Below, one piece after another: positions 3,560 through 37,092 of a stretch of 64,000 nt of DNA. Each line of letters begins with the position of its first letter. The first letter of the stretch is position 1. Under the pieces are notes generated by a model. The model made no database searches and had not been told where the DNA came from. It worked only from the letters and a program-made list of their open reading frames with translations. The stretch is from an uncultured virus (IMG/VR IMGVR_UViG_3300008627_000683) (Duplodnaviria > Heunggongvirae > Uroviricota > Caudoviricetes). The translations under genes were made by a program, and so were the position numbers. Location of the stretch: the IMG/VR virus record IMGVR_UViG_3300008627_000683, positions 1 to 64,000 of that record. One strand, written 5' to 3'.

Positions 3560-3954
3560 TGGAATGCACCTTTAATTTTAAGTTCTTCAAGTTTTTCAGC
3601 GAACATTTCTTTATCTTCTATACTCATATCTTCCATGAGTTGCTTTTCTGTCATAAACTTTTTTATTACTTTGGTTCTTTCAGTGTTTTCATCAAAAGTT
3701 ATTTCTGCTTCACCAAAGTCTAACTCTTCCTTAGGAATACGTGGCATTATTTTTAAGAACAAAATATATAACTGCAAATAAGTTTTGGCATAGACATAAG
3801 ATTGCTTCATAGCCTGCTCTTCAATTGAGTCATCAGGATTTATTTTCATATCTTCTTTGTTGCCGGGGTTTTCATGTAACCAATCTTCAAACACCTCTGC
3901 TACATCTGCATAGAGGTCAAGTTCTTCAGCAGTTATTTTAATTTTATCACCCAT
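3556..3954 (-). CDS. hypothetical protein
   Basis: acidic ORF; TAAATA 5 nt upstream of ATG 3954. Confidence 0.6.
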   Translation of the reverse strand: MGDKIKITAEELDLYADVAEVFEDWLHENPGNKEDMKINPDDSIEEQAMKQSYVYAKTYLQLYILFLKIMPRIPKEELDFGEAEITFDENTERTKVIKKFMTEKQLMEDMSIEDKEMFAEKLEELKIKGAFH

Positions 3955-3970
3955 CATAGTATTTACCCTT

Positions 3971-4588
3971 TTATTCCCATGGCGTGATTATATCAAAGTC
4001 CAGTGACTTACCATCCGTGCTCATGTCTTGATTATCGATATATTCGCCATCGTAGTATATACCAGTGACGAGAATATCATCGTTAATTTCACATATATCA
4101 AAGTTAACTTTTGATGGATCAAACTTGCCTTCAATATCAATAGTGCCTTCGTAGAATGTACCTTTCTCAGTATGGATACCAGCAAGTGTATATTCTTTAG
4201 GCTTTGGCATGATTTCTTCTTCTTGTAGCATGTTTCCTTCTTCATCATAGTCTTCTACAAATTCGACAAGGCCCCCGTAATAGATATTGTCTAGTTCTTT
4301 GGCTTCCCAACCAATGCCATCCATTTCAACAATCTCAAGTTGGGCATGATCTCGAGACACGCCATATTCATGGCCGCGGTCATCATGCTCATACCAATTG
4401 CTTAATGTTGCGTATTTTGGAATTTTGATGTCAGGGTTTTCTTCAGCAAACCAGTCCGGACTACCTACATACTCGTAAAAGTAATCACTCATTTCGTCTG
4501 ATTGCCAAAACTCGGCGCACTTTTTGGTAATTTTACCAAGTACCACTTCGCCGCCGTAACCGGTTAATATAAATTTAATGTGTGCCAT
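3971..4588 (-). CDS. acidic hypothetical phage protein
   Basis: 205 aa ORF with AAGGA RBS and sigma70 promoter upstream. Confidence 0.7.
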   Translation of the reverse strand: MAHIKFILTGYGGEVVLGKITKKCAEFWQSDEMSDYFYEYVGSPDWFAEENPDIKIPKYATLSNWYEHDDRGHEYGVSRDHAQLEIVEMDGIGWEAKELDNIYYGGLVEFVEDYDEEGNMLQEEEIMPKPKEYTLAGIHTEKGTFYEGTIDIEGKFDPSKVNFDICEINDDILVTGIYYDGEYIDNQDMSTDGKSLDFDIITPWE

Positions 4589-5710: not shown

Positions 5711-7780
5711 TTAACCAGTGCGTTTTGTGATCATTTCAGTGATATTAGCAGGGCACGGTGCGTAGTGACTAAACTCCATACTAAACTGACCACGGCCGCT
5801 CGTCATACCACGCAAGTCGCCAATATAGCCAAACATTTCACCAATTGGTGCTTCTGCCCAAATGCGTACCTTTTGTCCACTAACTTCTTGATTGCTAATC
5901 ATGCCGCGGCGTCTGTTAATGTCGCCAATAACGTCACCAACTTTATCCTCTGGAGCAATTACGTCAAGTTTCATGACAGGCTCTAGTAATTGTGGTCCTG
6001 CTTTAGGCATGGTTTGTCTAAAGCCACCTCGAGCCGCTAATTCAAACGCAATAGCACTTGAGTCAACTGCGTGTGAAGAACCGTCTGTTAATGTCACTTT
6101 AAAGTCTAACAACGGATAACCTGCTACAATGCCGTTATTAGCAGACTCTCTAAAACCTTTTTCAACAGCAGGCCAAAACTCTCTTGGCACATTACCACCG
6201 ACAACTTTTGATTCAAACTCAAAGCCGCCGCCTGATGGCAATGGCTCTATAGTATATTCAATATCACCAAACTGGCCAGAACCACCTGATTGCTTTTTAT
6301 GAACAAATTTGTCTTCCACTGTTTGTGTAATAGTTTCTCTGTATGCTACTTGTGGTTTACCAATACTTACTTCAATGCCATGGGTTCTTTTAAGAATGTC
6401 GCACTTAATGTCTAAGTGTAGTTCGCCCATACCCTTAAGAATAGTTTGCCCACTTTCTTGATCTGTTTCAACATGGAAGGACGGATCTTCAGCGACCATT
6501 TTACCAATAGCAGTTCCTAACTTATCCATGTCACCTTGTGTCTTTGGTTCAACAGCAATACTAATAACCGGGGCAGGGAATACCATTGGCTCTAGTACGG
6601 CGGGTTTATTTTTATCACACAGTGTATGACCTGTTTGTACAGTTTTCATACCAAGCAATGCAATAATATCGCCTGCTTGTGCAGAGTCCTTTTCTTCTCT
6701 ATTGTCGGCATGCATTTCTACAATACGGCCAACACGTTCGGACTTGCCTGTGCTACTGTTATAAATTGTATCACCTTTGTTAAGTTTGCCAGAGTAAATG
6801 CGTGTAAATGTCAATGCACCATACTTGTCGTCCATAATCTTAAACGCAAGTGCTCTTAGTGGTCTGTCATCATCAACAATAGCATGTTCACCTGTTTCAT
6901 TGCCTTCTAAGTCTACTTCTGGCTGTGGATCAACCTCAGTAGGATTAGGCAAATAATCAACCACGGCACTCAATACATTTTGTACGCCTTTATTTTTAAA
7001 TGAACTACCACAGAATGTTGGGAAGAAATCACAATTAATTGTACCCTTGCGAATACACTTTTTAAGATCTTCTTCGCTAATGCTGTCAGGATCCTCCATC
7101 CACTGCATCATTACATCGTCGTCTTGCTCTACAACTTGCTCTACCATTAGATCATAATATTCTTTGGCCTTGTCTGCCAAGTCTGCAGGAATGTCGCTAA
7201 TAGTGTAAGAAGTAGGATCTGCTGAATTTGACCAGGCCCATGCTTTTTGCGTAAGAATGTCTACAATGCCTACAAAATCATCTTCAGCACCAATTGGAAT
7301 AGCCATAATAACTGGTACTGCGTTTAAGCGATCTTTAATTTGCTCTACTACACGATAGAAATCTGCACCAACTCTATCCATTTTGTTAACGTAAATAACA
7401 CGGGCAACTTCACTGTCATTAGCATAACGCCAGTTTGTTTCGGATTGTGGTTCTACGCCTCCTACCGCGCAAAAAACACCAACGCCACCGTCTAATACTT
7501 TCAATGAGCGGTATACTTCAATTGTAAAGTCAACGTGTCCTGGTGTGTCAATAATGTTAAACTGGTGGTCATCCCAAAAGCATGTTGTAGCGGCTGACTG
7601 AATAGTAATACCGCGTTCCTGCTCTTGCTCCATAAAATCTGTAGTAGCGGCGCCGTCATGTACTTCGCCTATCTTATGGATTTTACCTGTTAGTTTTAAA
7701 ATGCGCTCTGTTGTTGTAGTTTTACCTGCATCAACGTGAGCGAAAATTCCTATGTTTCTATACTTTTGTAGATCTGACAT
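5711..7780 (-). CDS. fusA: translation elongation factor G
   Basis: 689 aa; [42 protein letters not shown]; domain V LLEP...GDINRRRG. Confidence 0.97.
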
Positions 7781-14344: not shown

Positions 14345-15664
14345 TTAGTAATAGATTTTATATATTTCTCTTACGTCATATTCAGGGTGATGTTTTTGTA
14401 GTATTTCTAGAGCGTTTCGAATTCTACTATAATCATTTTCTTTATTGAATGTAAAGTTTTTCAAAGATTCAATTAGATTTTTTATTTGTTCAATATCATC
14501 GCTGTAAAAACAACTACTTTTCTTCAGTGTGTGTTCAATTTTCTCTCTGCAATTTTGGACGACATCATAGGGAACTAATCGCAAGTTAAAATCACTGCTA
14601 TCTACCATTTGAACAAGCCCTGCTATACGCACTCTCTTATGCATAGGTATTTTTTTATTTTTTAGATCCATAAAAGAAAGTAGTTCATCTAAATATGGCA
14701 ACGTTAACGCTGTTATAACTATATTAAACGAAACTGGAGTATGATCGCATTCTAGGCCAATCTGTAAATATTGATCAATATTTTTTTCTAGTTTTGTCCA
14801 TTTTACAGGATATCTCTGTAATTCAATCGCCGGGCCTACACTATCAATACTTAATACTAACATAACAAGTTTAAAATGCTTGATGATTTCAATGAATCTA
14901 GGATGAATCATTGTCGTATTTGTAGTTATTACTAATTCTATATTTTTACTGTGATCGCATTCTATCAAATATTCTAAAAATTTTAAATTTTCTAATATTA
15001 TAGTGGGTTCGCCGCCACTTAAATACAATCGAGTAATATTGCTTATTCTTTTTTCTCCAATAATATTTTTTAATCCTATTTTTGAAGGCCAATTATATTT
15101 TTTAAGTTTTTTAGAAGTTCTACTCGCACCCGCGTATTCATTGTCAGGCCTGCCTGTTTCAGAAAGATCATATTTAAATTGGCTTAAATCATCAACGCCT
15201 AGTCTATTAAAAAATCTTCCATAGGTAATACTATAATCACTATTACAAATTTTACATGCCAAGTTACATGTATTTCCAGACTGTATTTGATAAAAATAAG
15301 GATAGCTATCGTCTAATATAAAATTATTTTTAACACTTTTATCAACAACGTCTTGTATGTGAGGATAGCTATCCTCCGCACCAAGCGCCGCCTGGCGAAC
15401 ACTCCACATGCCACGTTCTTCAGAGTCCCAGCAATTCTGACATTCAGGTGCCTTAACTCCATTATATAGATTTTCTCGAAGTTTAAGCATCCTTTTGGAA
15501 TTCCACGCATCATTTAAAGTATGTGTGTTTATGTTATAGTGATTTCCGTTCTCATCCAAGTGGGCATACTCTTTATCGTTACTCGAGGCACAACAAAATT
15601 TTATATCACCATTGGTTTCTATTTCTTGATGGGCCCAGGGATAAGTGCAAAGTGGTTTATTCAT
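14345..15664 (-). CDS. radical SAM protein with N-terminal twitch/SPASM-like domain
   Basis: LC.YPW, CC, C..CW; CNLACKIC; GGEP; SIDS.G...QRYP..W. Confidence 0.85.
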   Translation of the reverse strand: MNKPLCTYPWAHQEIETNGDIKFCCASSNDKEYAHLDENGNHYNINTHTLNDAWNSKRMLKLRENLYNGVKAPECQNCWDSEERGMWSVRQAALGAEDSYPHIQDVVDKSVKNNFILDDSYPYFYQIQSGNTCNLACKICNSDYSITYGRFFNRLGVDDLSQFKYDLSETGRPDNEYAGASRTSKKLKKYNWPSKIGLKNIIGEKRISNITRLYLSGGEPTIILENLKFLEYLIECDHSKNIELVITTNTTMIHPRFIEIIKHFKLVMLVLSIDSVGPAIELQRYPVKWTKLEKNIDQYLQIGLECDHTPVSFNIVITALTLPYLDELLSFMDLKNKKIPMHKRVRIAGLVQMVDSSDFNLRLVPYDVVQNCREKIEHTLKKSSCFYSDDIEQIKNLIESLKNFTFNKENDYSRIRNALEILQKHHPEYDVREIYKIYY

Positions 15665-16301
15665 TATCTTGTATTTTAGATTGGACAAATCTATCTAACC
15701 CTTCGTATGTGTCGTACAGCACATAACGCCACGAATCAAACTCTGCCGGATGTGGATATTCTTCTGGCTTTATAAAAATAAAAGTAATATTATAAAAATG
15801 TTTAAACAATAACTCAAACTGTTTTATCCATTTTTCTGGATTACGTGGTCCTTGCTTTTCGTTTCTATAATGTTCTGTATTTAGATATATGTTATTAGCA
15901 TACTTTTGGTTTTTTCCCTTGCCATAAAAGTCGTAACCCAACAACATAATAACATCTGCTTCTTCTTTTATAGCAGTATAAACAGCATACAATCCACTGC
16001 TCCAATTAATAGGTTGTTGGTATGTTTCTAAACCAAAATAAGGAAGATCGGGCAACACTCTTACTTTATCTTTTGCTAAGTAGTGCGCCCAATCCTTACG
16101 GGTGTAAAAGTTAGAGCGTAAGTGAACGCCATTACTGACTGCTTCTCTTGCCCTAAACTTATTACAGCATATCAAATTGTCAACGTGATTGTCTCGCCAA
16201 ATCGCGCCGCATCCGTATAACGGTCCTATGTCGCGCAACTTTTGTAAATCATAACTTTTGCGTGTCTCACCATTGCCAATACAATATGCTATTTTTTTCA
16301 T
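15657..16301 (-). CDS. DUF115/MptE-like (Maf/sialyltransferase-like fold) protein
   Basis: IGNGETR, YGCGAIWRD, WSSG..A, LLGYDF, NNIY. Confidence 0.55.
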   Translation of the reverse strand: MKKIAYCIGNGETRKSYDLQKLRDIGPLYGCGAIWRDNHVDNLICCNKFRAREAVSNGVHLRSNFYTRKDWAHYLAKDKVRVLPDLPYFGLETYQQPINWSSGLYAVYTAIKEEADVIMLLGYDFYGKGKNQKYANNIYLNTEHYRNEKQGPRNPEKWIKQFELLFKHFYNITFIFIKPEEYPHPAEFDSWRYVLYDTYEGLDRFVQSKIQDNE

Positions 16302-29577: not shown

Positions 29578-29589
29578 ACACATATTTAG

Positions 29590-29847
29590 TGGGGGCGACT
29601 TTGTTAAGAAGGTGTCGCCCCCGAAACCCCCTACGCGACCGCTAATTAGGCGGCTAATGCGTAATCGTAATAATCGTCATTTGCAATTATATAGTTTGCT
29701 GTTTTTTAATATGGAACTGCTCCCATATGTCGTCCATTTATCCTCTTCACCCTGTCGAAACTGTGTCACCCCCGTAAAAAATTTGGTGGAGGTGCCGGGC
29801 ACTGCCCCCGGGTCCAGAATGCGTACTTTCAACTTCATACGACAATC
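29590..29847 (-). ncRNA. ssrA: circularly permuted (two-piece) tmRNA
   Basis: acceptor piece ends GGACCCGGGGGCAGTGCCCGGCACCTCCACCA (CCA at 29786-29784), 10-nt spacer, coding piece starts GGGGGTG (29773) giving a G3:U70 Ala stem; tag ORF 29684-29646 ANDDYYDYALAA*; terminal GC hairpin 29591-29622; outer ends approximate. Confidence 0.93.
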
Positions 29848-29852
29848 AAAAT

Positions 29853-29860
29853 TATTTATA
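29853..29860 (-). promoter_or_regulatory. late promoter of tmRNA
   Basis: exact TATAAATA immediately upstream of the acceptor piece. Confidence 0.65.
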
Positions 29861-29897
29861 TAGGTGTAGAAGAATAAAGGAATACCTGAGCATTCCT

Positions 29898-30071
29898 TTA
29901 TTTAATTTTCTTTTCTTCAAACCAGACGTGTTTTCTTAAAACTGGATCGTATTTCTTTTTACGTAGTTTTTCAGGATTGCGTCCGTTTTTAGTAGTAGTA
30001 TAATAGTAGCCAGTGCCTTCTGTTGACACTAGTTTAACTATTCTAATTGATTTACTAGTAGGATAAGACAT
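29898..30071 (-). CDS. rpmG: 50S ribosomal protein bL33 (Zn-free type)
   Basis: translated by hand, 57 aa: [57 protein letters not shown]. Confidence 0.95.
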
Positions 30072-30403
30072 TAGTATTGATTTTTTGTTGTGTTGTCGGC
30101 AAACGCATGATTGTCAATAACATGTTCTTTTGCTTTTTCATTTGTCATTTCATCAGATGTTTCCGGAATAAAAGGAACATCAAGATTTGTGTAAGTGTTA
30201 TACCAACGTGATGATGGGCCCCATGTTGCGGGCCCGCAATCGAAATATGGTGTTTCAGTGTACCTATGTGTTTCTTTGAGTATTTGTTTTGAATTTGATT
30301 CTTGCAGATCTTTACAAAATGCGTAAAAAGTTTCTGCTTTTTCAACATCGCCTTCTGCAAGTTTGAGACACTCTAATTTTAAAGTTGAGTCATCCATAAT
30401 CAA
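30071..30403 (-). CDS. hypothetical protein
   Basis: [15 protein letters not shown] motif; stop overlaps the rpmG start. Confidence 0.6.
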
Positions 30404-30602: not shown

Positions 30603-30902
30603 TTATTTATCCGCTTCTACTTTAACTTGTAGCGGATAATTATTATTTCGTGCCAAAAGTGTCACTTCAATACCGTGTTGTTCAGCAATTTCATATGGCA
30701 AAATAGCAACAATAGCAGAACCTTCTGCATCTACTTTATATGTTAGTTCTTGTGCTTCTTCTAATGTGTGGCTAAACACAGTCATAAGAACATTAACAAC
30801 AAAGTCCATTGGTGTTACATCATCATTGATGAATATAACTTTATACAATGATGGCTCTTTTAAATCTAATTGCTTTTTAATCTTGGTTGCAGTATCAGAC
30901 AT
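30603..30902 (-). CDS. clpS: ATP-dependent Clp protease adaptor ClpS
   Basis: P.LYKVIFINDDVTPMDFVV.VL..VF, G.A....PYEIAE, YPL. Confidence 0.93.
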   Translation of the reverse strand: MSDTATKIKKQLDLKEPSLYKVIFINDDVTPMDFVVNVLMTVFSHTLEEAQELTYKVDAEGSAIVAILPYEIAEQHGIEVTLLARNNNYPLQVKVEADK

Positions 30903-31465
30903 TAATTATCCTTTTCGTAATCTTTCTTAATATTTTTATCTACAAAGTCTTTTAGTCTATATATTTTATATCTTGCGCCTTCTCGAGTTTGTCCACTTTG
31001 CCCTCGCTCCAGCATACCCTCTAAAAATTCAATAACTAGTGGGTTTCCTTTTTTCTTTGCTTCTCTTCCACGTTTAAGTTCTTCTTGCATTTCTCGTGAG
31101 AAAGGTATTTTATATAAACGAGTATTTCTCTCTCCTAAATGTTGCACCCATATTTCTATTACATGCCCTTGTCGTTGTCCATCAAGTAGCACAACTTTTC
31201 CTGAAGGGTATGTAGGAAGTGCATATCCTAGAAAATTATTTAACTTCACTATTGTACTATAGAATAAGAAAAAAATCAATGGAATTGTTAAAAACTTTAT
31301 ATAAAACTTAGCTGGTGTTTTTAGTAATGCGTATAATACTAATATTGCTAATACTAGCATGGCACCCAATTGTAAACCAAACTCGTATATAATATTATAC
31401 CAGTCTGATAAAACGATTTCATCCGTAGTATAATCAGTAAAATCTATTATTTCTTTCTCTGACAT
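30902..31465 (-). CDS. membrane protein (third gene of MotA-like triplet)
   Basis: two N-terminal TM helices, LGY..P, R.YKIPFS. Confidence 0.6.
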   Translation of the reverse strand: MSEKEIIDFTDYTTDEIVLSDWYNIIYEFGLQLGAMLVLAILVLYALLKTPAKFYIKFLTIPLIFFLFYSTIVKLNNFLGYALPTYPSGKVVLLDGQRQGHVIEIWVQHLGERNTRLYKIPFSREMQEELKRGREAKKKGNPLVIEFLEGMLERGQSGQTREGARYKIYRLKDFVDKNIKKDYEKDN

Positions 31466-31467
31466 AA

Positions 31468-32298
31468 CTAATTAGTTCCCTCTTGTTGCCATTTTCTCAA
31501 TTGAGTTGTCATTCCATCCCATAGACTAGGATCATATGTATCACCAATTGCCATAGGATGATTGCCATTATCGTCTTCAAAGTGTGTTAACCCATCTGTA
31601 TATACAAATGGTGTCGGATGATTATTAACGTATTCTATAGAATATGTATAACTTTGGGTACCGTCTGGGGTTGCGATTCCATTCTCTCTTTGTACAACTG
31701 TAAAGTTAAATGCAGTAACTTCTTCGCCAGTTTCTGTCATTTCAAATTTGGCAGTAGTAATTTCTTTAAACGGATTTACTCTTACTAATTCAACTGTTAC
31801 AGGTATTGGATATTTGGGAGGATTTGGAGATATGTCCTCAGGATTATCTGCTCCCGTGTATCCGGAAAGTCTTGACCGATGTGCATAATAGTGTACATTA
31901 ACTGTCCATTCACCTGGAATCCAGCCACGTATAGTAGCAACTTCAACATTTTCATCTACTGCTACTATAGTGCCGTCTGCTAACATAAGTGTATCGTTTG
32001 CCGCGCCCAAATCATCTCTATCTAAATGCATTAAGCCTGATGTGCGCGATTTAAAACTAACAACATTACCTTCAGGATCTTTTACCCACAAGTCAATATC
32101 ACTGTAATTGCCAACTTCCCAAGTCAATGTAATAATTAGTTCAGACTTAGGGTCTATTTTTTTATTCGTAGGTATAGGAGGTTGTATTAGCAAAAAAGAG
32201 ATAACAAACAGAAATACGAAACCTACTAATGTATTAAAAAGTAGATCAGTAAATCCTAGTCCTGAAAATTTTGATCGCTCACGCTTTCCTGTGGTCAT
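31468..32298 (-). CDS. MotB/ExbD-like TM anchor fused to YfaP/DUF2135-like Ig domain
   Basis: single TM with conserved Asp (GFTDLLFNTL); ITLTW..SDIDLWVKDP.G, LDRDD.G, PGEWTVNVHYY. Confidence 0.6.
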   Translation of the reverse strand: MTTGKRERSKFSGLGFTDLLFNTLVGFVFLFVISFLLIQPPIPTNKKIDPKSELIITLTWEVGNYSDIDLWVKDPEGNVVSFKSRTSGLMHLDRDDLGAANDTLMLADGTIVAVDENVEVATIRGWIPGEWTVNVHYYAHRSRLSGYTGADNPEDISPNPPKYPIPVTVELVRVNPFKEITTAKFEMTETGEEVTAFNFTVVQRENGIATPDGTQSYTYSIEYVNNHPTPFVYTDGLTHFEDDNGNHPMAIGDTYDPSLWDGMTTQLRKWQQEGTN

Positions 32299-32749
32299 AT
32301 TCTAAGTTTATCAATTGAAGTTTTGAAAGTAACGAACACGTTAAACCCACCAATGTAGTAGTTAATGCTGTACTCATACCAGCAGCCATGTCGCGAATGA
32401 CTTCTTTTGCCTGTCCGATGTTTGATAAATCTAGATCGTTAAACGAGCCACCAAGCATTATAATAAATCCAGTTACTGTTCCAATTAGTCCTAGTGATAC
32501 CATCGACTCGGCGAAGAACCAAGATACTTCTATAGATCTAAAGTTTAATGGTTTGCGTTTAGAAACTTTGTATGTTTGTAACCCTATATTGGCTGTTACG
32601 CCTGTAAACAATGCTATAATAAAGAAACTAATTTTTGTTTGGTCTAAATACCAAAGAGTACGCCACATATCAAAATAATATAATACTGCGGCACTACATG
32701 CTATTACGCAGGTCAATAACCACCACTTTAAGAAACTATTAGACTTCAT
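32279..32749 (-). CDS. MotA/TolQ/ExbB proton-channel family protein
   Basis: SLGLIGTVTGFI and GMSTALTTTLVGL signatures; TAAATA 5 nt upstream of ATG 32749. Confidence 0.85.
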   Translation of the reverse strand: MKSNSFLKWWLLTCVIACSAAVLYYFDMWRTLWYLDQTKISFFIIALFTGVTANIGLQTYKVSKRKPLNFRSIEVSWFFAESMVSLGLIGTVTGFIIMLGGSFNDLDLSNIGQAKEVIRDMAAGMSTALTTTLVGLTCSLLSKLQLINLEYDHRKA

Positions 32750-32792
32750 TAATATATTTATGTAAAAGAATATTATTATAAATATTTGTACC

Positions 32793-33860
32793 ATGCACGA
32801 CAAAAAGTTCTTTTGTATAGAGCCTTTCGTAAGTCTTTCTATAGTTAAAGAAGATCATATTTTTCCTTGTTGTCTTAATGAAGGGCAAAAAAGCACTCAA
32901 AAAGATGACCTATGGAACGATCCTTATCTTGAAAATATACGAAAACAAATTCTAAACAACGAAGTTCCTGAAGAATGTCGCGCCTGTGTTGAACAAGAAA
33001 AGTTTGGTCGATATAGCAGACGATTACATTCTAATGATGTTTGGTTAGAACAACACGGCAATTTTGAAGATGCTCTTGAAAATGATGCTCCGTATAAGTT
33101 AGATTTTTGGACTGGAAACTTGTGTAATTTGGCTTGTAGTACTTGTACATATACAAATAGTTCATCATGGTTTACACTTCTTAAAAAAGCAGATAAAGCA
33201 GGAAAAACTGATTTACGTTATAAAGGAAACTATGTAAGTAATTTAGATTACTCTTATGAATTTAAAAAAGAAGATATTCCGAATATTGACTTTAAAAATA
33301 TGGAAAATATACACTTCAACGGCGGTGAACCCTTGCTAACAGATTCACACTTTAAAATTTTAAATTTAATTCCGCCAGAACAAAGAAAGGATGTTTATGT
33401 CATTTATAACACAAACGGTACCGTCAGAATAGATTTAGAAGATGAAAAATGGAGTATTTTCAAAGAATACAAAAGTGTCGATATGTGTTTTAGTATAGAT
33501 GGCATTGAAGAAACATTTAATTATGTTAGATGGCCTGCTAAATGGGAAGAAGTACAAAGCAACATTGATCTATGGGCTGAATATTGTTATGGAAAATATG
33601 ATGACTGCCACTTTGAAATGAGTGTAAACATGGTAAAAACTCCGCACAATTATACAACGTTTGATAATGCCGTTAAATATGTCACTGATCGTTGGTTTAC
33701 CAAACTTATTGCGATTCGAAACGCAAGCATTGATGAATATGTGTTTACTACTAATGATCATTCTTTTATGGATTGGTCAGACGCACAATTTGAAGAATAC
33801 ACAAAGACAGAAGAATTTTTCTTGCAAACAAAAAATTTAGAAACACTACGAAATCTTTGA
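32793..33860 (+). CDS. radical SAM protein (twitch/SPASM N-terminus)
   Basis: FCIEPF, PCC, C..C; CNLACSTC; GGEP; YNTNGT; SIDG...YVRWP..W. Confidence 0.85.
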   Translation: MHDKKFFCIEPFVSLSIVKEDHIFPCCLNEGQKSTQKDDLWNDPYLENIRKQILNNEVPEECRACVEQEKFGRYSRRLHSNDVWLEQHGNFEDALENDAPYKLDFWTGNLCNLACSTCTYTNSSSWFTLLKKADKAGKTDLRYKGNYVSNLDYSYEFKKEDIPNIDFKNMENIHFNGGEPLLTDSHFKILNLIPPEQRKDVYVIYNTNGTVRIDLEDEKWSIFKEYKSVDMCFSIDGIEETFNYVRWPAKWEEVQSNIDLWAEYCYGKYDDCHFEMSVNMVKTPHNYTTFDNAVKYVTDRWFTKLIAIRNASIDEYVFTTNDHSFMDWSDAQFEEYTKTEEFFLQTKNLETLRNL

Positions 33861-33964: not shown

Positions 33965-34399
33965 ATGACAGAGTATAGAATCACATCTGGGAATCTAATC
34001 CCAACACTTAACCGACACATGGTAGGCTTCGATCGTCTCTTTGGCGATATGGACAGATTGTTTACAAGGGGCCAAGCACCATCTTACCCACCTTACAACA
34101 TCGAAAAACTTAGCGATACAGAATATGTTATCACTATCGCTGTCGCTGGTTTTGATCAAGGTGATCTTTCAGTAACCGTTGACAACGGCGTTCTTAATGT
34201 CTCAGGACACAAAGAAGATTCAGATAAGCAAACATGGTTACACAAGGGCATCGCTACACGCGACTTCCAACGCTCTTGGAACCTTGCTGAATTTGTTAAG
34301 GTTGTCTCAGCAGAGTGTAAAAACGGTATGCTTGAAGTTCGTTTGGTTCAAGAAGTTCCTGAAACCGCTAAACCCAAGGAAATTGAGATTAAATTTTAA
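33965..34399 (+). CDS. ibpA: small heat-shock protein Hsp20/IbpA
   Basis: VGFDRLF, SYPPYNIEK, AVAGF, LHKGIA.R.F, NGML.V.L...VPE..KP..I.I. Confidence 0.93.
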   Translation: MTEYRITSGNLIPTLNRHMVGFDRLFGDMDRLFTRGQAPSYPPYNIEKLSDTEYVITIAVAGFDQGDLSVTVDNGVLNVSGHKEDSDKQTWLHKGIATRDFQRSWNLAEFVKVVSAECKNGMLEVRLVQEVPETAKPKEIEIKF

Positions 34400-34470: not shown

Positions 34471-34782
34471 TTAGTATAATCTATTTTTACTAGGTATTCT
34501 TTCTGCTTGCTCTTTAAGATGCCGCTTGCGGGCAACGTCTCTTGCTCTTTTTCTTTTAATACTTGGCTTTTCATAATGTTCGCGGGCTTTTAGTTCTTGC
34601 AATTTGCCGTCGTTGTCTATTTTCTTCTTAAGTTTACGTATTGCCTTTTCAACATTTCCGTCATTAACCCAAACTCTGAGTCCTGTAATTTTTACTGGAG
34701 CCCGTTTATCTTTTTGTTTGAATGGCGCTCTTCTATTATTATTCCATTTTGTATTTCTATTATTCCAAGTTTGTGCCATCAT
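34471..34782 (-). CDS. rpsU: 30S ribosomal protein bS21 with N-terminal extension
   Basis: V.V.DGNVEKAIRKLKKK...L.ELK.REHYEKPS.KRKR. Confidence 0.93.
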   Translation of the reverse strand: MMAQTWNNRNTKWNNNRRAPFKQKDKRAPVKITGLRVWVNDGNVEKAIRKLKKKIDNDGKLQELKAREHYEKPSIKRKRARDVARKRHLKEQAERIPSKNRLY

Positions 34783-35168
34783 TCCTCCAAGTATTGTAGT
34801 GGCTCTATAATATTTTTTATTCTGTTTTTATTTAATAAACTATATGATTCTGCGATACTATCATCGCAAAAGTAATAGCAGTTATTTTTATTTAACATCC
34901 ATCCAAACACGTGAGCAATAATATGATTGTATCGTAAATCAATTATTATGATATCTGATTGTTGCGTAGTATTAAGCAACCAATCTATATTGTCATTCAT
35001 AACCGGATCATAGATACATAAACTAACATCTAAATCTACATGTTTTAGTGTATTTAAAATTTCTCTTTGATCTTCTAAACCACATGCCGCAATTAATATG
35101 TTTAATGCTGATCCGTAATATTTGTCAGGTGGAGTTATAAGTGTAATTGTGTTATTCGCCGAGGACAT
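34779..35168 (-). CDS. hypothetical phage protein
   Basis: ITLITPPD...DWLL motif; coupled to neighbours. Confidence 0.65.
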   Translation of the reverse strand: MSSANNTITLITPPDKYYGSALNILIAACGLEDQREILNTLKHVDLDVSLCIYDPVMNDNIDWLLNTTQQSDIIIIDLRYNHIIAHVFGWMLNKNNCYYFCDDSIAESYSLLNKNRIKNIIEPLQYLEE

Positions 35169-37092
35169 CTTTACGTTTTAAGGTTGTTTGTAAGTATTCT
35201 TGTTCTTCTTCTGTAAACTCTGTAACACTTACACCATTATTTACACGTGACATTAAGTCGTCGATCTGTTTTTGACTTAATTTCTTTTGTTTGTCAGACT
35301 TGTTTAATTCTTTCTTAAGTTTTTCTATTTCTTTTTCTAACTTTTTAACTTTTTTAGTATCTTCTTTATGTACCACAAATGGTTTGCCTTCTAACTGTTC
35401 CTTTTCTACTACTTTCTTTTCTACAATTTTCTCTACAATAACTTCAACAGGAACTTCTTTAATCACTTCCTTTTCAACTATTACCTCTACTGGCACTTCC
35501 TTCTCAACCAGTTTCTCAACCTCTACTATCTTTTCAACTTCAACAGGAACTTCCTTTTCTACTATCTTCTCAACCTCTACTATCTTTTCTACAACCTTCT
35601 CTACTTCAACAGGAACTTCCTTCTCAACTAGTTTCTCAACTTCTACAATTTTCTCTACAACTTTCTCTACTTCGACAGGAACTTCCTTTTCTACTATCTT
35701 CTCAACCTCTACTATTTTCTCTACGACTTTTAGCTGATCAGTCTTTTTTTTACTAGCAGGTGGTTCTGTAGGTGGTGTTGGTTTTCGTGGTTTATCTGTG
35801 CGGAATCTTATTAGTGTCATATTACCAGCAATAACTAACAATACTGCTAATGGATCAAATACAAATATAATAACAATAATAACCCATCTTACAGCATCTT
35901 CCAGTAAGTCAGTCGTAATATCATTGCCATATATTAAACCAGCAATGTACTTAATTGGGCCCACTTCTGCTTCTAATTCTCTTACTTGGCTTGCTAACAC
36001 AAAACGTTCTTCATTTAATGTGTCTATTTGTGTATAATAGTTTTCAATTTCTATCTCTAACTCTTTTACTTTGCCTTCTACTTCGTCTGCTTTAACGCCC
36101 ATTTGCTCTTGTAATGATTTAATTTCATTATTAGCGGCGGTAATTTCTGCTTGTGTTTGCTGTCTTAACTCATCAATCTTTTGCTGATGTGGTTTAACTT
36201 TATTAGTGTAGTCTGCTCTTAATGCTGTTATTTGTTTTTGAACATCATCTGATACATCAATCTCTTTTTGTCGCAGTTCATTAATTTCGTTTTCAATTTC
36301 TCTAATTTGTGCGGCAAGTTCATCTCTGCGTGGTTGCTGTTCTTTTCTTAATTCTCTACCTTTTTCAACCCAATCTGTAATATTACCCCACGCACTTTTT
36401 TCTACACCTTTGTCTGTATATGCTTTAACATCAGTGTCTAATTGTGCTATTGTTTGATTAACACGCTCGATGGCTTGTTGTTTTACTACAACATCTTCTT
36501 GAACACGAGATTGTGCTACTTTAATGCGTTCTTCTTCTACGTCAATATTGTTTTCTAACTGCTCACGTAATGACTGTATCTGTGCTTCTTCTTGTGCTAT
36601 TAAACTGCTGACTCTATTCCAAGCACCATCACGTATTTGCTCTTGCTGTTCTATTGCTCTTGCTATATTTGTATTGTGTTGTCCTGTATCATTACTTTCT
36701 AATCTAGTAATTTTTTCTTTAGTAACATTTACTCTGCCATTATAGCGAGCAATTTTTTCATCAATACGTTCTACTTGTGCTTGTGCTTGTCCTGCGCCAG
36801 TAGTTTGTTCTACGTGGGCCTTGGATAAAAAGCCAAAGATACCCATAGAGGTAATAAACATTAGCACAACAACCGCAAGAGTAAGATAATACTTTAAAAA
36901 TTTAGGTATGTTGAACCAAAACTGGTAGAGCCACGAGGCAGTTACTAACTTACCTACTTCAAGAACCGCCCCCATAATAGCAATGGGTACAGCCGCGGCG
37001 GCAAATATAGCCATTAATCCTATAATGCTATAATATGCGGCAACGGCACTGATAGACAGCGCCGTCAATAGTACAAATAATGCAAAACCCAT
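35152..37092 (-). CDS. membrane-anchored coiled-coil protein with VEK/VPVE repeats
   Basis: 3 N-terminal TMs (LEVGKLV, ITSMGIFGFLSKAH), long coiled coil, EVGPIKYIA, FVFDPLAV TM, repeat tail. Confidence 0.8.
   Translation of the reverse strand: MGFALFVLLTALSISAVAAYYSIIGLMAIFAAAAVPIAIMGAVLEVGKLVTASWLYQFWFNIPKFLKYYLTLAVVVLMFITSMGIFGFLSKAHVEQTTGAGQAQAQVERIDEKIARYNGRVNVTKEKITRLESNDTGQHNTNIARAIEQQEQIRDGAWNRVSSLIAQEEAQIQSLREQLENNIDVEEERIKVAQSRVQEDVVVKQQAIERVNQTIAQLDTDVKAYTDKGVEKSAWGNITDWVEKGRELRKEQQPRRDELAAQIREIENEINELRQKEIDVSDDVQKQITALRADYTNKVKPHQQKIDELRQQTQAEITAANNEIKSLQEQMGVKADEVEGKVKELEIEIENYYTQIDTLNEERFVLASQVRELEAEVGPIKYIAGLIYGNDITTDLLEDAVRWVIIVIIFVFDPLAVLLVIAGNMTLIRFRTDKPRKPTPPTEPPASKKKTDQLKVVEKIVEVEKIVEKEVPVEVEKVVEKIVEVEKLVEKEVPVEVEKVVEKIVEVEKIVEKEVPVEVEKIVEVEKLVEKEVPVEVIVEKEVIKEVPVEVIVEKIVEKKVVEKEQLEGKPFVVHKEDTKKVKKLEKEIEKLKKELNKSDKQKKLSQKQIDDLMSRVNNGVSVTEFTEEEQEYLQTTLKRKDVLGE
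35400..35730 (-). repeat. coding tandem repeats (VEKIVEVEK.VEKEVPVE)n
   Basis: degenerate repeats visible in DNA and protein. Confidence 0.85.

Follow-up and report, generated by a model that had tools for sequence, protein, structure and literature searches.

The stretch of DNA analysed here (the window) comprises 64,000 nucleotides (nt) of an uncultured virus of the Caudoviricetes, positions 1 to 64,000 of the IMG/VR record IMGVR_UViG_3300008627_000683. Three adjacent genes of its minus strand, designated g1, g2 and g3 (the trio), encode a minimal MotA/TolQ/ExbB-family protein, a protein with a single transmembrane (TM) helix and a beta-sandwich head, and a protein anchored by a TM hairpin. 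According to the favoured reading, to which a probability of about one half is given, their products form an inner-membrane complex of the MotAB/ExbBD/TolQR type with a third, adaptor-like subunit, by which the phage keeps or alters a function of the host envelope.

The MotAB, ExbBD, TolQR and ZorAB families are 5:2 ion-driven rotary motors. To our knowledge, the characterised functional classes of such motors are only the flagellar, Ton, Tol, gliding/type IX secretion system (T9SS) and Zorya ones; the trio would add one class. Its A subunit would be the smallest encountered here, and both the type of B-subunit head and the third partner would be new. The trio is of interest to the fields of 5:2 motors and of phage-host relations because it is abundant, uncharacterised and found in culturable systems. 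The source record is a virus record of 77 kb whose completeness is estimated at 26%; the virus, a marine phage, is therefore probably a jumbo phage.

The three genes and their products

The genes and their immediate surroundings are given below from the upstream side.

32750-32803, minus strand: upstream region (sequence) common to g1 and to a divergent radical-SAM gene
32279-32749, minus strand: g1; 156 amino acids (aa) from ATG 32749; minimal 4-TM MotA/TolQ/ExbB-family protein
31468-32298, minus strand: g2; 276 aa; candidate B-like subunit, TM helix with Asp18 and beta-sandwich predicted to be periplasmic
30902-31465, minus strand: g3; 187 aa; TM hairpin and tail predicted to be periplasmic
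30603-30902, minus strand: ClpS gene (PF02617, E 3.2e-27)

The three open reading frames (ORFs) are co-oriented and tightly packed: g1 shares 20 nt with g2, a gap of 2 nt separates g2 from g3, and the stop of g3 overlaps the ClpS gene by 1 nt. The ClpS gene probably belongs to the same transcription unit. The mechanical ORF of g1 begins at TTG 32803; ATG 32749 is preferred as the start because the homologues begin there.

The g1 protein matches Pfam PF01618 (MotA_ExbB) at 25.9 bits, above the gathering cut-off of 22.9 (E 8.8e-6), and this family is also matched by its Rhizobium-phage and bacterial counterparts. A profile built from 46 sequences of the g1 family matches, among chains of solved structure, MotA (8gqy, E 4.4e-4) and TolQ (8odt, E 5.5e-4), and more weakly PomA (E 0.04) and ExbB (E 0.08-0.11). 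In the profile alignment, the motifs GLxGTVxG and ALxTTxxGL fall on the corresponding motifs of TolQ and MotA. Residues G87, G90, G94, G124, A128, T132, G135 and L136 are invariant in the 46 sequences, and T91 and T131 are conserved in at least 90% of them; the Thr residues of the two motifs are presumably those that line the proton (ion) path.

The phage protein is of a 'short' type, made of four helices joined by short loops, without a cytoplasmic insert. Most bacterial relatives are longer by some 70-80 residues, inserted between helices 2 and 3, and by a tail at the C-terminus; the median length of g1 is 235 aa in bacterial loci versus 160 aa in viral loci. In PADLOC, the best matches of g1 are ZorA models (E 6e-6 to 1.5e-2), limited to the shared TM core (g1 residues 79-155, model positions 110-186 of 683). 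In NCBIfam, g1 matches ZorA_4 with E 3.9e-4 at 19.4 bits versus a cut-off of 500. PHROGs gave no match for g1.

The g2 protein comprises an N-terminal tail predicted to be cytoplasmic (N-in), a TM helix, a 15-residue linker, a beta-sandwich (residues ~54-225) and, at the C-terminus, an extension particular to its clade. In its AlphaFold2 (AF2) model (80-row alignment; predicted local distance difference test, pLDDT, 80), the single TM helix spans residues 12-38 and contains the motif GFTDLLF. Asp18 of this motif is D in all 77 ungapped relatives, the other 3 of the 80 aligned rows having a gap. The net positive charge of the N-terminal tail (K+R 2.29 vs D+E 0.86) suggests the N-in orientation and hence a periplasmic sandwich.

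Two acidic motifs of g2, DxD and LDRDD, are invariant or nearly so. The best VIA fold matches of the sandwich are chains of Ca2+-binding TerD proteins: 2qz7_B with Z 9.5 (root-mean-square deviation 3.6, 129 residues aligned) and 2kxt with Z 8.9, the next row having Z 5.8; the TerD-matching part is residues ~53-240. Foldseek matches the sandwich to TerD with E 5.9e-4 to 6.9e-4. Because of the conserved Asp motifs and of this fold likeness, the sandwich probably binds Ca2+. In fold and Asp-rich motifs, g2 resembles the TerD proteins. These are soluble and cytoplasmic, whereas g2 is anchored in the membrane, has a predicted periplasmic location and is partnered by a MotA-like gene.

The earlier note on this DNA, made from the sequence alone, had called this domain YfaP/DUF2135-like rather than OmpA-like. 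The first half of that claim receives modest support from an hhalign alignment of g2 with Escherichia coli YfaP (residues 140-216; probability 68%, E 4.8e-5, 74 columns) and from one ESM Atlas structural neighbour that bears PF09906 on the aligned part; on the other side, Pfam gave no g2 match at E<=0.1, its TerD and DUF2135 models included, and the best solved folds are TerD. The second half is in keeping with the results: a TerD-like sandwich was found and no OmpA-like domain, and no OmpA or TolR chain is among the fold matches listed for the domain. NCBIfam and PADLOC gave no family match for g2. Its PHROGs match is weak and concerns a family of unknown function (E 1.2e-3). Against PDB sequences, the g2 profile gave weak local matches to an adhesin repeat (E 1.6e-3) and to a subtilisin C-terminal jelly-roll (E 0.55-0.75).

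The AF2 model of g3 (pLDDT 82) has two TM helices, at residues 16-49 and 54-78, that form a hairpin. It is followed by a small beta-rich domain and then by a poorly ordered low-complexity linker, variable in length among relatives, after which a conserved C-terminal strand rejoins the sheet. The loop between the helices is basic (K+R 2.2 vs D+E 0.07) and the N-terminal tail is very short (median 4 aa in 56 relatives), which predicts that both ends of the protein are periplasmic.

In 7 of the 80 viral loci examined, a C-terminal Phage_lysozyme domain is fused to g3 (PF00959, E 8.5e-49 and 3e-42), and the ESM Atlas holds an 86-member viral cluster with the same fusion. These fusions place the g3 tail in the periplasm and point to peptidoglycan. 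No enzyme domain is present in g3 of the other 73 viral loci or of the 80 bacterial loci.

The family of g3 is a large one, with 3111 representatives (clusters at 50% identity) at E<=1e-3 and 2080 at E<=1e-10. No family match for g3 was found in Pfam, PHROGs, NCBIfam or PADLOC, nor any Foldseek match (best E 0.1). In VIA, every row aligned the hairpin (Z<=7.7, none outstanding); the hairpin dominates the list, which barely probes the soluble domain. Two of the top matches of the g3 profile, P0121 (374 aa) and P0125 (260 aa), have two matched stretches each and may be tandem or fused g3 proteins.

The earlier note had described the DNA at 30902..32760 as a three-gene set encoding a MotA/TolQ/ExbB protein, a single-TM protein with the Asp typical of MotB/ExbD/TolR helices and a 2-TM protein. 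Each of these descriptions agrees with the present results: three minus-strand ORFs at that place, a PF01618 match above cut-off, one TM helix with Asp18 inside GFTDLLF, and two TM helices in the g3 model. The conservation of the Asp in homologues, which it had put forward as a check, is that reported above; the other check, co-occurrence of the genes, is reported below.

Linkage, distribution and phylogeny of the trio

Linkage was examined in 164 loci: the 80 best viral and the 80 best bacterial ones, 3 phage records and the window locus. The set was picked by g2 similarity and includes near-duplicates (134 distinct g2 sequences). The genes g1, g2 and g3 are on one strand and in the same order in 158 of the 164 loci; in the other 6, the absent gene lies past the contig end. 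The trio thus co-occurs as a complete and ordered set.

Pattern scans gave at least 570 loci in bacterial genomes and at least 381 viral contigs. In a collection clustered at 90%, 886 relatives of g2 were found at E<=1e-3; neither Pfam domains nor informative names occur among the best 120 of them. All source-given names seen for relatives of the trio are 'hypothetical protein' or an automatic gene-call label. In the phage collection, tblastn found 29 records, all of them Rhizobium or Sinorhizobium phages of several genome types. The order g1-g2-g3 is retained in the three Rhizobium phage types inspected; in Rhizobium phage RHph_X2_25, an annotated HNH endonuclease gene (3565-4107) is inserted between the g2 and g3 homologues. 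A DNA-level search of the module region against the phage collection gave no match.

In bacteria, the module is carried by Proteobacteria in chromosomal contexts, including those of Oceanobacter kriegii and Noviherbaspirillum pedocola. It is accessory, since g2 is present at E<=1e-10 in 17 of 401 genomes of an even sample (one phylum). The flanking genes are metabolic or housekeeping in O. kriegii, in N. pedocola and in 16 further loci (81 of 124 flanking ORFs). With relatives in ordinary chromosomal contexts of many Proteobacteria, a phage-specific origin of the module does not stand. That the bacterial copies are prophage remnants was considered and rejected: no phage-type family was found among the scanned flanking proteins.

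A g2 tree was built by quick maximum likelihood (LG+G4; support from the Shimodaira-Hasegawa-like approximate likelihood ratio test, SH-aLRT, only; identical rows collapsed; unrooted). It has two groups, separated by a split with support 98. The first is a genome-only clade of 43 rows. The second, of 84 rows, unites every one of the 56 viral rows with those of the window and of two Rhizobium phages, and further with 25 genome rows whose labels are SAR11, SAR116, Desulfobacterales and others. The phage copy belongs to a virus-type lineage of a module that is also resident in proteobacterial chromosomes. Being unrooted, the tree is silent on the direction of transfer.

Five loci (L035, L032, L043, L053 and L042) and the SAR116-labelled loci have near-identical g2 sequences under the labels SAR116, Rhodobacterales, Planktomarina and Cryomorphaceae; such conflicting labels probably reflect mis-binning, not recent transfer.

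The g3 family, with more than 3000 cluster representatives at 50% identity, gives a measure of the abundance of the module, which occurs in genomes labelled SAR11 or SAR116 as well as in phages that likely infect them. Because culturable Rhizobium phages and bacterial isolates carry the trio, the question of its function is directly testable, and the phage copies, being compact, lend themselves to structural work. Tractable carriers among the Rhizobium phages include RHph_N34, P10VF and 16-3; in the last of these, g2 is matched by p040. A classification of non-flagellar MotAB relatives (PMC12505986) mentions DUF appendages; none of its passages found on this topic describes the architecture of the trio. 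The parts of the literature reached by the searches likewise contain no description of the trio or of its architecture, and the papers listed by one of these searches make no mention of DUF2135 or YfaP.

The proposed envelope complex and its alternatives

In the proposed complex, g1 would be the channel-forming A subunit, cut down to four helices. The g2 protein would be the B subunit, whose single helix would bear the ion-accepting Asp and whose TerD/DUF2135-type head, on a short linker near the membrane, would replace a peptidoglycan-binding domain. The hairpin-anchored g3 would be the third subunit, in the position of TonB or TolA, that is the element worked on by the ion flow. The work site would most likely be the periplasm, on or near peptidoglycan, as suggested by the lysozyme fusions and by nearby genes for cell-wall enzymes (YkuD, M15). 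The phage would express the module together with ClpS during infection, and a function of the host envelope would thereby be kept or altered.

The likeness is closest to hand in TolQ-TolR-TolA and ExbB-ExbD-TonB: a PF01618 A subunit with the same two TM motifs; a B gene directly downstream, encoding one helix, predicted N-in, with a membrane Asp; and, in the same operon, a third membrane-anchored protein, here predicted to be periplasmic, with a low-complexity linker. The MotAB/PomAB stator shares the four-TM topology and the Asp-bearing partner, and MotA (8gqy) is the best solved-structure match of the g1 profile. Unlike in this stator, neither a plug nor an OmpA-like peptidoglycan-binding domain was found in g2, and no flagellar genes are near the trio.

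Several points weigh against the proposed complex. Phage-type g1, made of four helices, has no cytoplasmic domain at all, unlike all characterised A subunits, those of the Tol and Ton systems included, and thus lacks the torque-generating domain of MotA and PomA. The g2 head has no detectable similarity to ExbD or TolR (PF02472): hhalign of g2 is non-significant against E. coli TolR (E 0.38) and ExbD (E 0.15), although the local ExbD alignment, short and non-significant, does place Asp18 on ExbD Asp25. As g2 lacks significant similarity to ExbD, TolR or MotB, it is called a B subunit on the strength of its position, its topology and a single residue. The g3 protein is anchored by a hairpin of two helices and resembles neither TonB nor TolA; no TonB_C or TolA C-terminal domain was detected, in searches that barely probed its small soluble domain. 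The seven lysozyme fusions all belong to one clade of the g2 tree and may be a single event. The assembly, its 5:2 stoichiometry included, is a matter of inference; a complex prediction of g1, g2 (residues 1-230) and g3, made without controls, gave g3 as partner scores of 0.09 and 0.04 versus a mark of 0.32, which count neither for nor against it. The bacterial neighbours are heterogeneous, and no shared pathway emerges from them. Lastly, the proposal draws some support from metatranscriptome contigs (four libraries) of a 90-99% identical relative, in which parts of all three genes are represented and the junctions g1/g2, g2/g3 and g3/ClpS are bridged (with an in-frame 6-nt deletion in g2); such contigs, however, attest to presence in RNA libraries and are no proof of transcription or of a single transcript.

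The earlier note had read the trio as a phage-encoded, uncharacterised motor; as possible roles it had named the draining or sensing of the proton-motive force, a block to superinfection, and interference with Ton, Tol or Zorya complexes of the host. The constituents of that reading were found, namely an A subunit, an Asp-bearing B-like partner and a third membrane protein that co-occur; its phage-encoded character has to be widened, the module not being specific to phages. A more ambitious version is put forward only tentatively: the trio may represent an unrecognised class of 5:2 envelope motors of Proteobacteria and of marine and rhizobial phages, in which a MotA-like ring would turn a Ca2+-binding, TerD-headed B subunit and thereby move a g3 arm on peptidoglycan. 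Phages would use it to tie wall remodelling, or lysis, to how energised the infected cell is, one lineage doing so through a lysozyme fused to the arm.

Among the genes near the trio there is no universal fourth gene, the commonest neighbours reaching 20 of 80 viral loci (ClpS) or 15 of 80 bacterial loci. Recurrent neighbours and their positions relative to the module are as follows.

ClpS: directly downstream of g3, 20 of 80 viral loci
Hsp20: upstream, 21 of 80 viral loci
Ribosomal protein S21: nearby, 27 of 80 viral loci
ClpP: upstream, 14 of 80 viral loci, 8 of them within 39 nt
M15 peptidase: upstream, 6 of 80 viral loci
YkuD L,D-transpeptidase: upstream, 15 of 80 bacterial loci
vWA-FHA protein: downstream, 10 of 80 bacterial loci (ter operons likewise pair TerD-domain proteins with vWA proteins)
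Protein of about 240 aa, weakly DUF3108-like: downstream, 9 of 80 bacterial loci

A role in the control of lysis is judged unlikely. The g1/g2 channel would sense or dissipate the proton-motive force, and g3 would tether a fused or recruited muralytic activity until the membrane is de-energised, in parallel with a pinholin and a signal-anchor-release endolysin. MotAB-type channels leak protons once unplugged, which fits this scheme. So do the lysozyme fusions of 7 of the 80 viral loci and of the 86-member Atlas cluster, in which g3, like a signal-anchor-release phage endolysin, combines an N-terminal membrane anchor with a GH24-type lysozyme, and the M15 peptidase genes just upstream in 6 viral loci. 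Unlike in these endolysins, the anchor is a two-helix hairpin followed by a conserved domain, is lysozyme-free elsewhere (73 of 80 viral loci and 80 of 80 bacterial ones) and is always linked to g1 and g2. Moreover, housekeeping genes surround the bacterial copies and phage genes are absent there (81 proteins from 16 loci, plus 2 loci), and the neighbours in the window are ClpS, tmRNA (transfer-messenger RNA), Hsp20 and radical-SAM genes, with no lysis cassette.

A non-motor function has a similarly small share of the probability. The trio would be a cation (Ca2+/H+) channel or sensor, or a factor of membrane-protein quality control acting with Clp and Hsp20, the MotA-like protein being only a channel or scaffold. 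The lack in g1 of a cytoplasmic interface for exerting torque, the Ca2+-binding-type fold of g2 and the proteostasis genes that adjoin the viral module (ClpS in 20, ClpP in 14 and Hsp20 in 21 of 80 loci) are consistent with it. On the other side, the periplasm is also where the Ton and Tol motors act. ClpS and ClpP belong to the cytoplasm, whereas g2 and g3 are predicted to have their soluble parts in the periplasm; and as the bacterial loci have no linkage to Clp or Hsp20, this linkage may be synteny within one marine phage group.

A function as a conflict system, whether in defence of the Zorya type, in superinfection exclusion or as a decoy of the phage against host Zorya, Ton or Tol motors, is very unlikely: the MotA-like TM core of g1, whose best PADLOC matches are ZorA models (with ZorA_4 in NCBIfam), the patchy bacterial distribution (17 of 401 genomes, one phylum) and the presence of the module in phages and hosts alike would agree with it, but the ZorA matches concern the shared core only (19.4 vs 500 bits), g1 (156 aa) has no long ZorA tail, g2 is not ZorB-like, g2 and g3 have no PADLOC match, ZorC, ZorD and ZorE were not found among the scanned proteins, no recurring nuclease or effector gene accompanies the trio (its neighbours were not scanned with PADLOC), and nothing beyond the weak core matches speaks for a link to Zorya.

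Upstream region and other features of the window

The earlier note had also put the three genes under a late box. This could not be upheld, as there is no exact T4-type late box upstream of g1 on the module strand. The sole exact TATAAATA of the g1 upstream region is at 32777-32784 on the plus strand, ahead of the divergent radical-SAM gene. On the module strand, CATAAATA abuts the ATG, and a sigma-70-like match (10 of 12) is found at 32803-32775. Across the window, TATAAATA is observed 18 times vs 11.9 +/- 3.2 expected, and 6 of 100 shuffles reach as high a number; the excess is non-significant. Sixteen of the 18 exact sites are on the minus (mostly coding) strand. Sites shortly 5' of ORF starts include those at 1068, 7808, 19918, 38375, 40760, 49003, 53066 and 57914.

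Other features of the window are listed by position.

5711-7780, minus strand: EF-G-like protein (PHROG 6880 'translation elongation factor', E 2.2e-125)
14345-15688, minus strand: radical-SAM-like protein (PHROG 14086)
29588-29882, minus strand: tmRNA of the permuted alphaproteobacterial type (Rfam RF04321 121.8 bits, RF01849 83.7 bits); ARAGORN tag peptide ANDDYYDYALAA
29898-30071, minus strand: ORF of 57 aa, likeness to ribosomal protein L33 by eye only
32793-33860, plus strand: radical-SAM-like protein (PHROG 1802), divergent from g1
33965-34399, plus strand: Hsp20
34471-34782, minus strand: S21-like ORF
35152-37092, minus strand: protein of 646 aa
49013-50527, minus strand: radical-SAM-like protein (PHROG 21308)

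The permuted alphaproteobacterial type of the tmRNA hints at an alphaproteobacterial host. The S21-like ORF is so named from locus L085, whose g2 is 100% identical and in which the ORF at the same place clusters with a PF01165-matching protein. The 646-aa protein is hydrophobic in segments at its N-terminus and internally, resembles a coiled coil over long stretches and includes a series of VEKIVEVEK/VEKEVPVEVEK repeats; it has no PHROG match at E<=1e-5.

In 11 further viral loci, the gene immediately divergent from the module is of the same family as the radical-SAM gene that diverges from g1 in the window. The radical-SAM gene of the window is nearly uncovered by the RNA-library contigs (32820-33845), which carries no weight as a finding; the deepest cover by these contigs is on the Hsp20 gene. 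In the relative from the RNA libraries, 259 bases within the ORF 30071-30403 (window 30142-30402) are swapped for 250 others. This variable cassette is located between the L33-like ORF and an ORF encoding a membrane protein of 55 aa.

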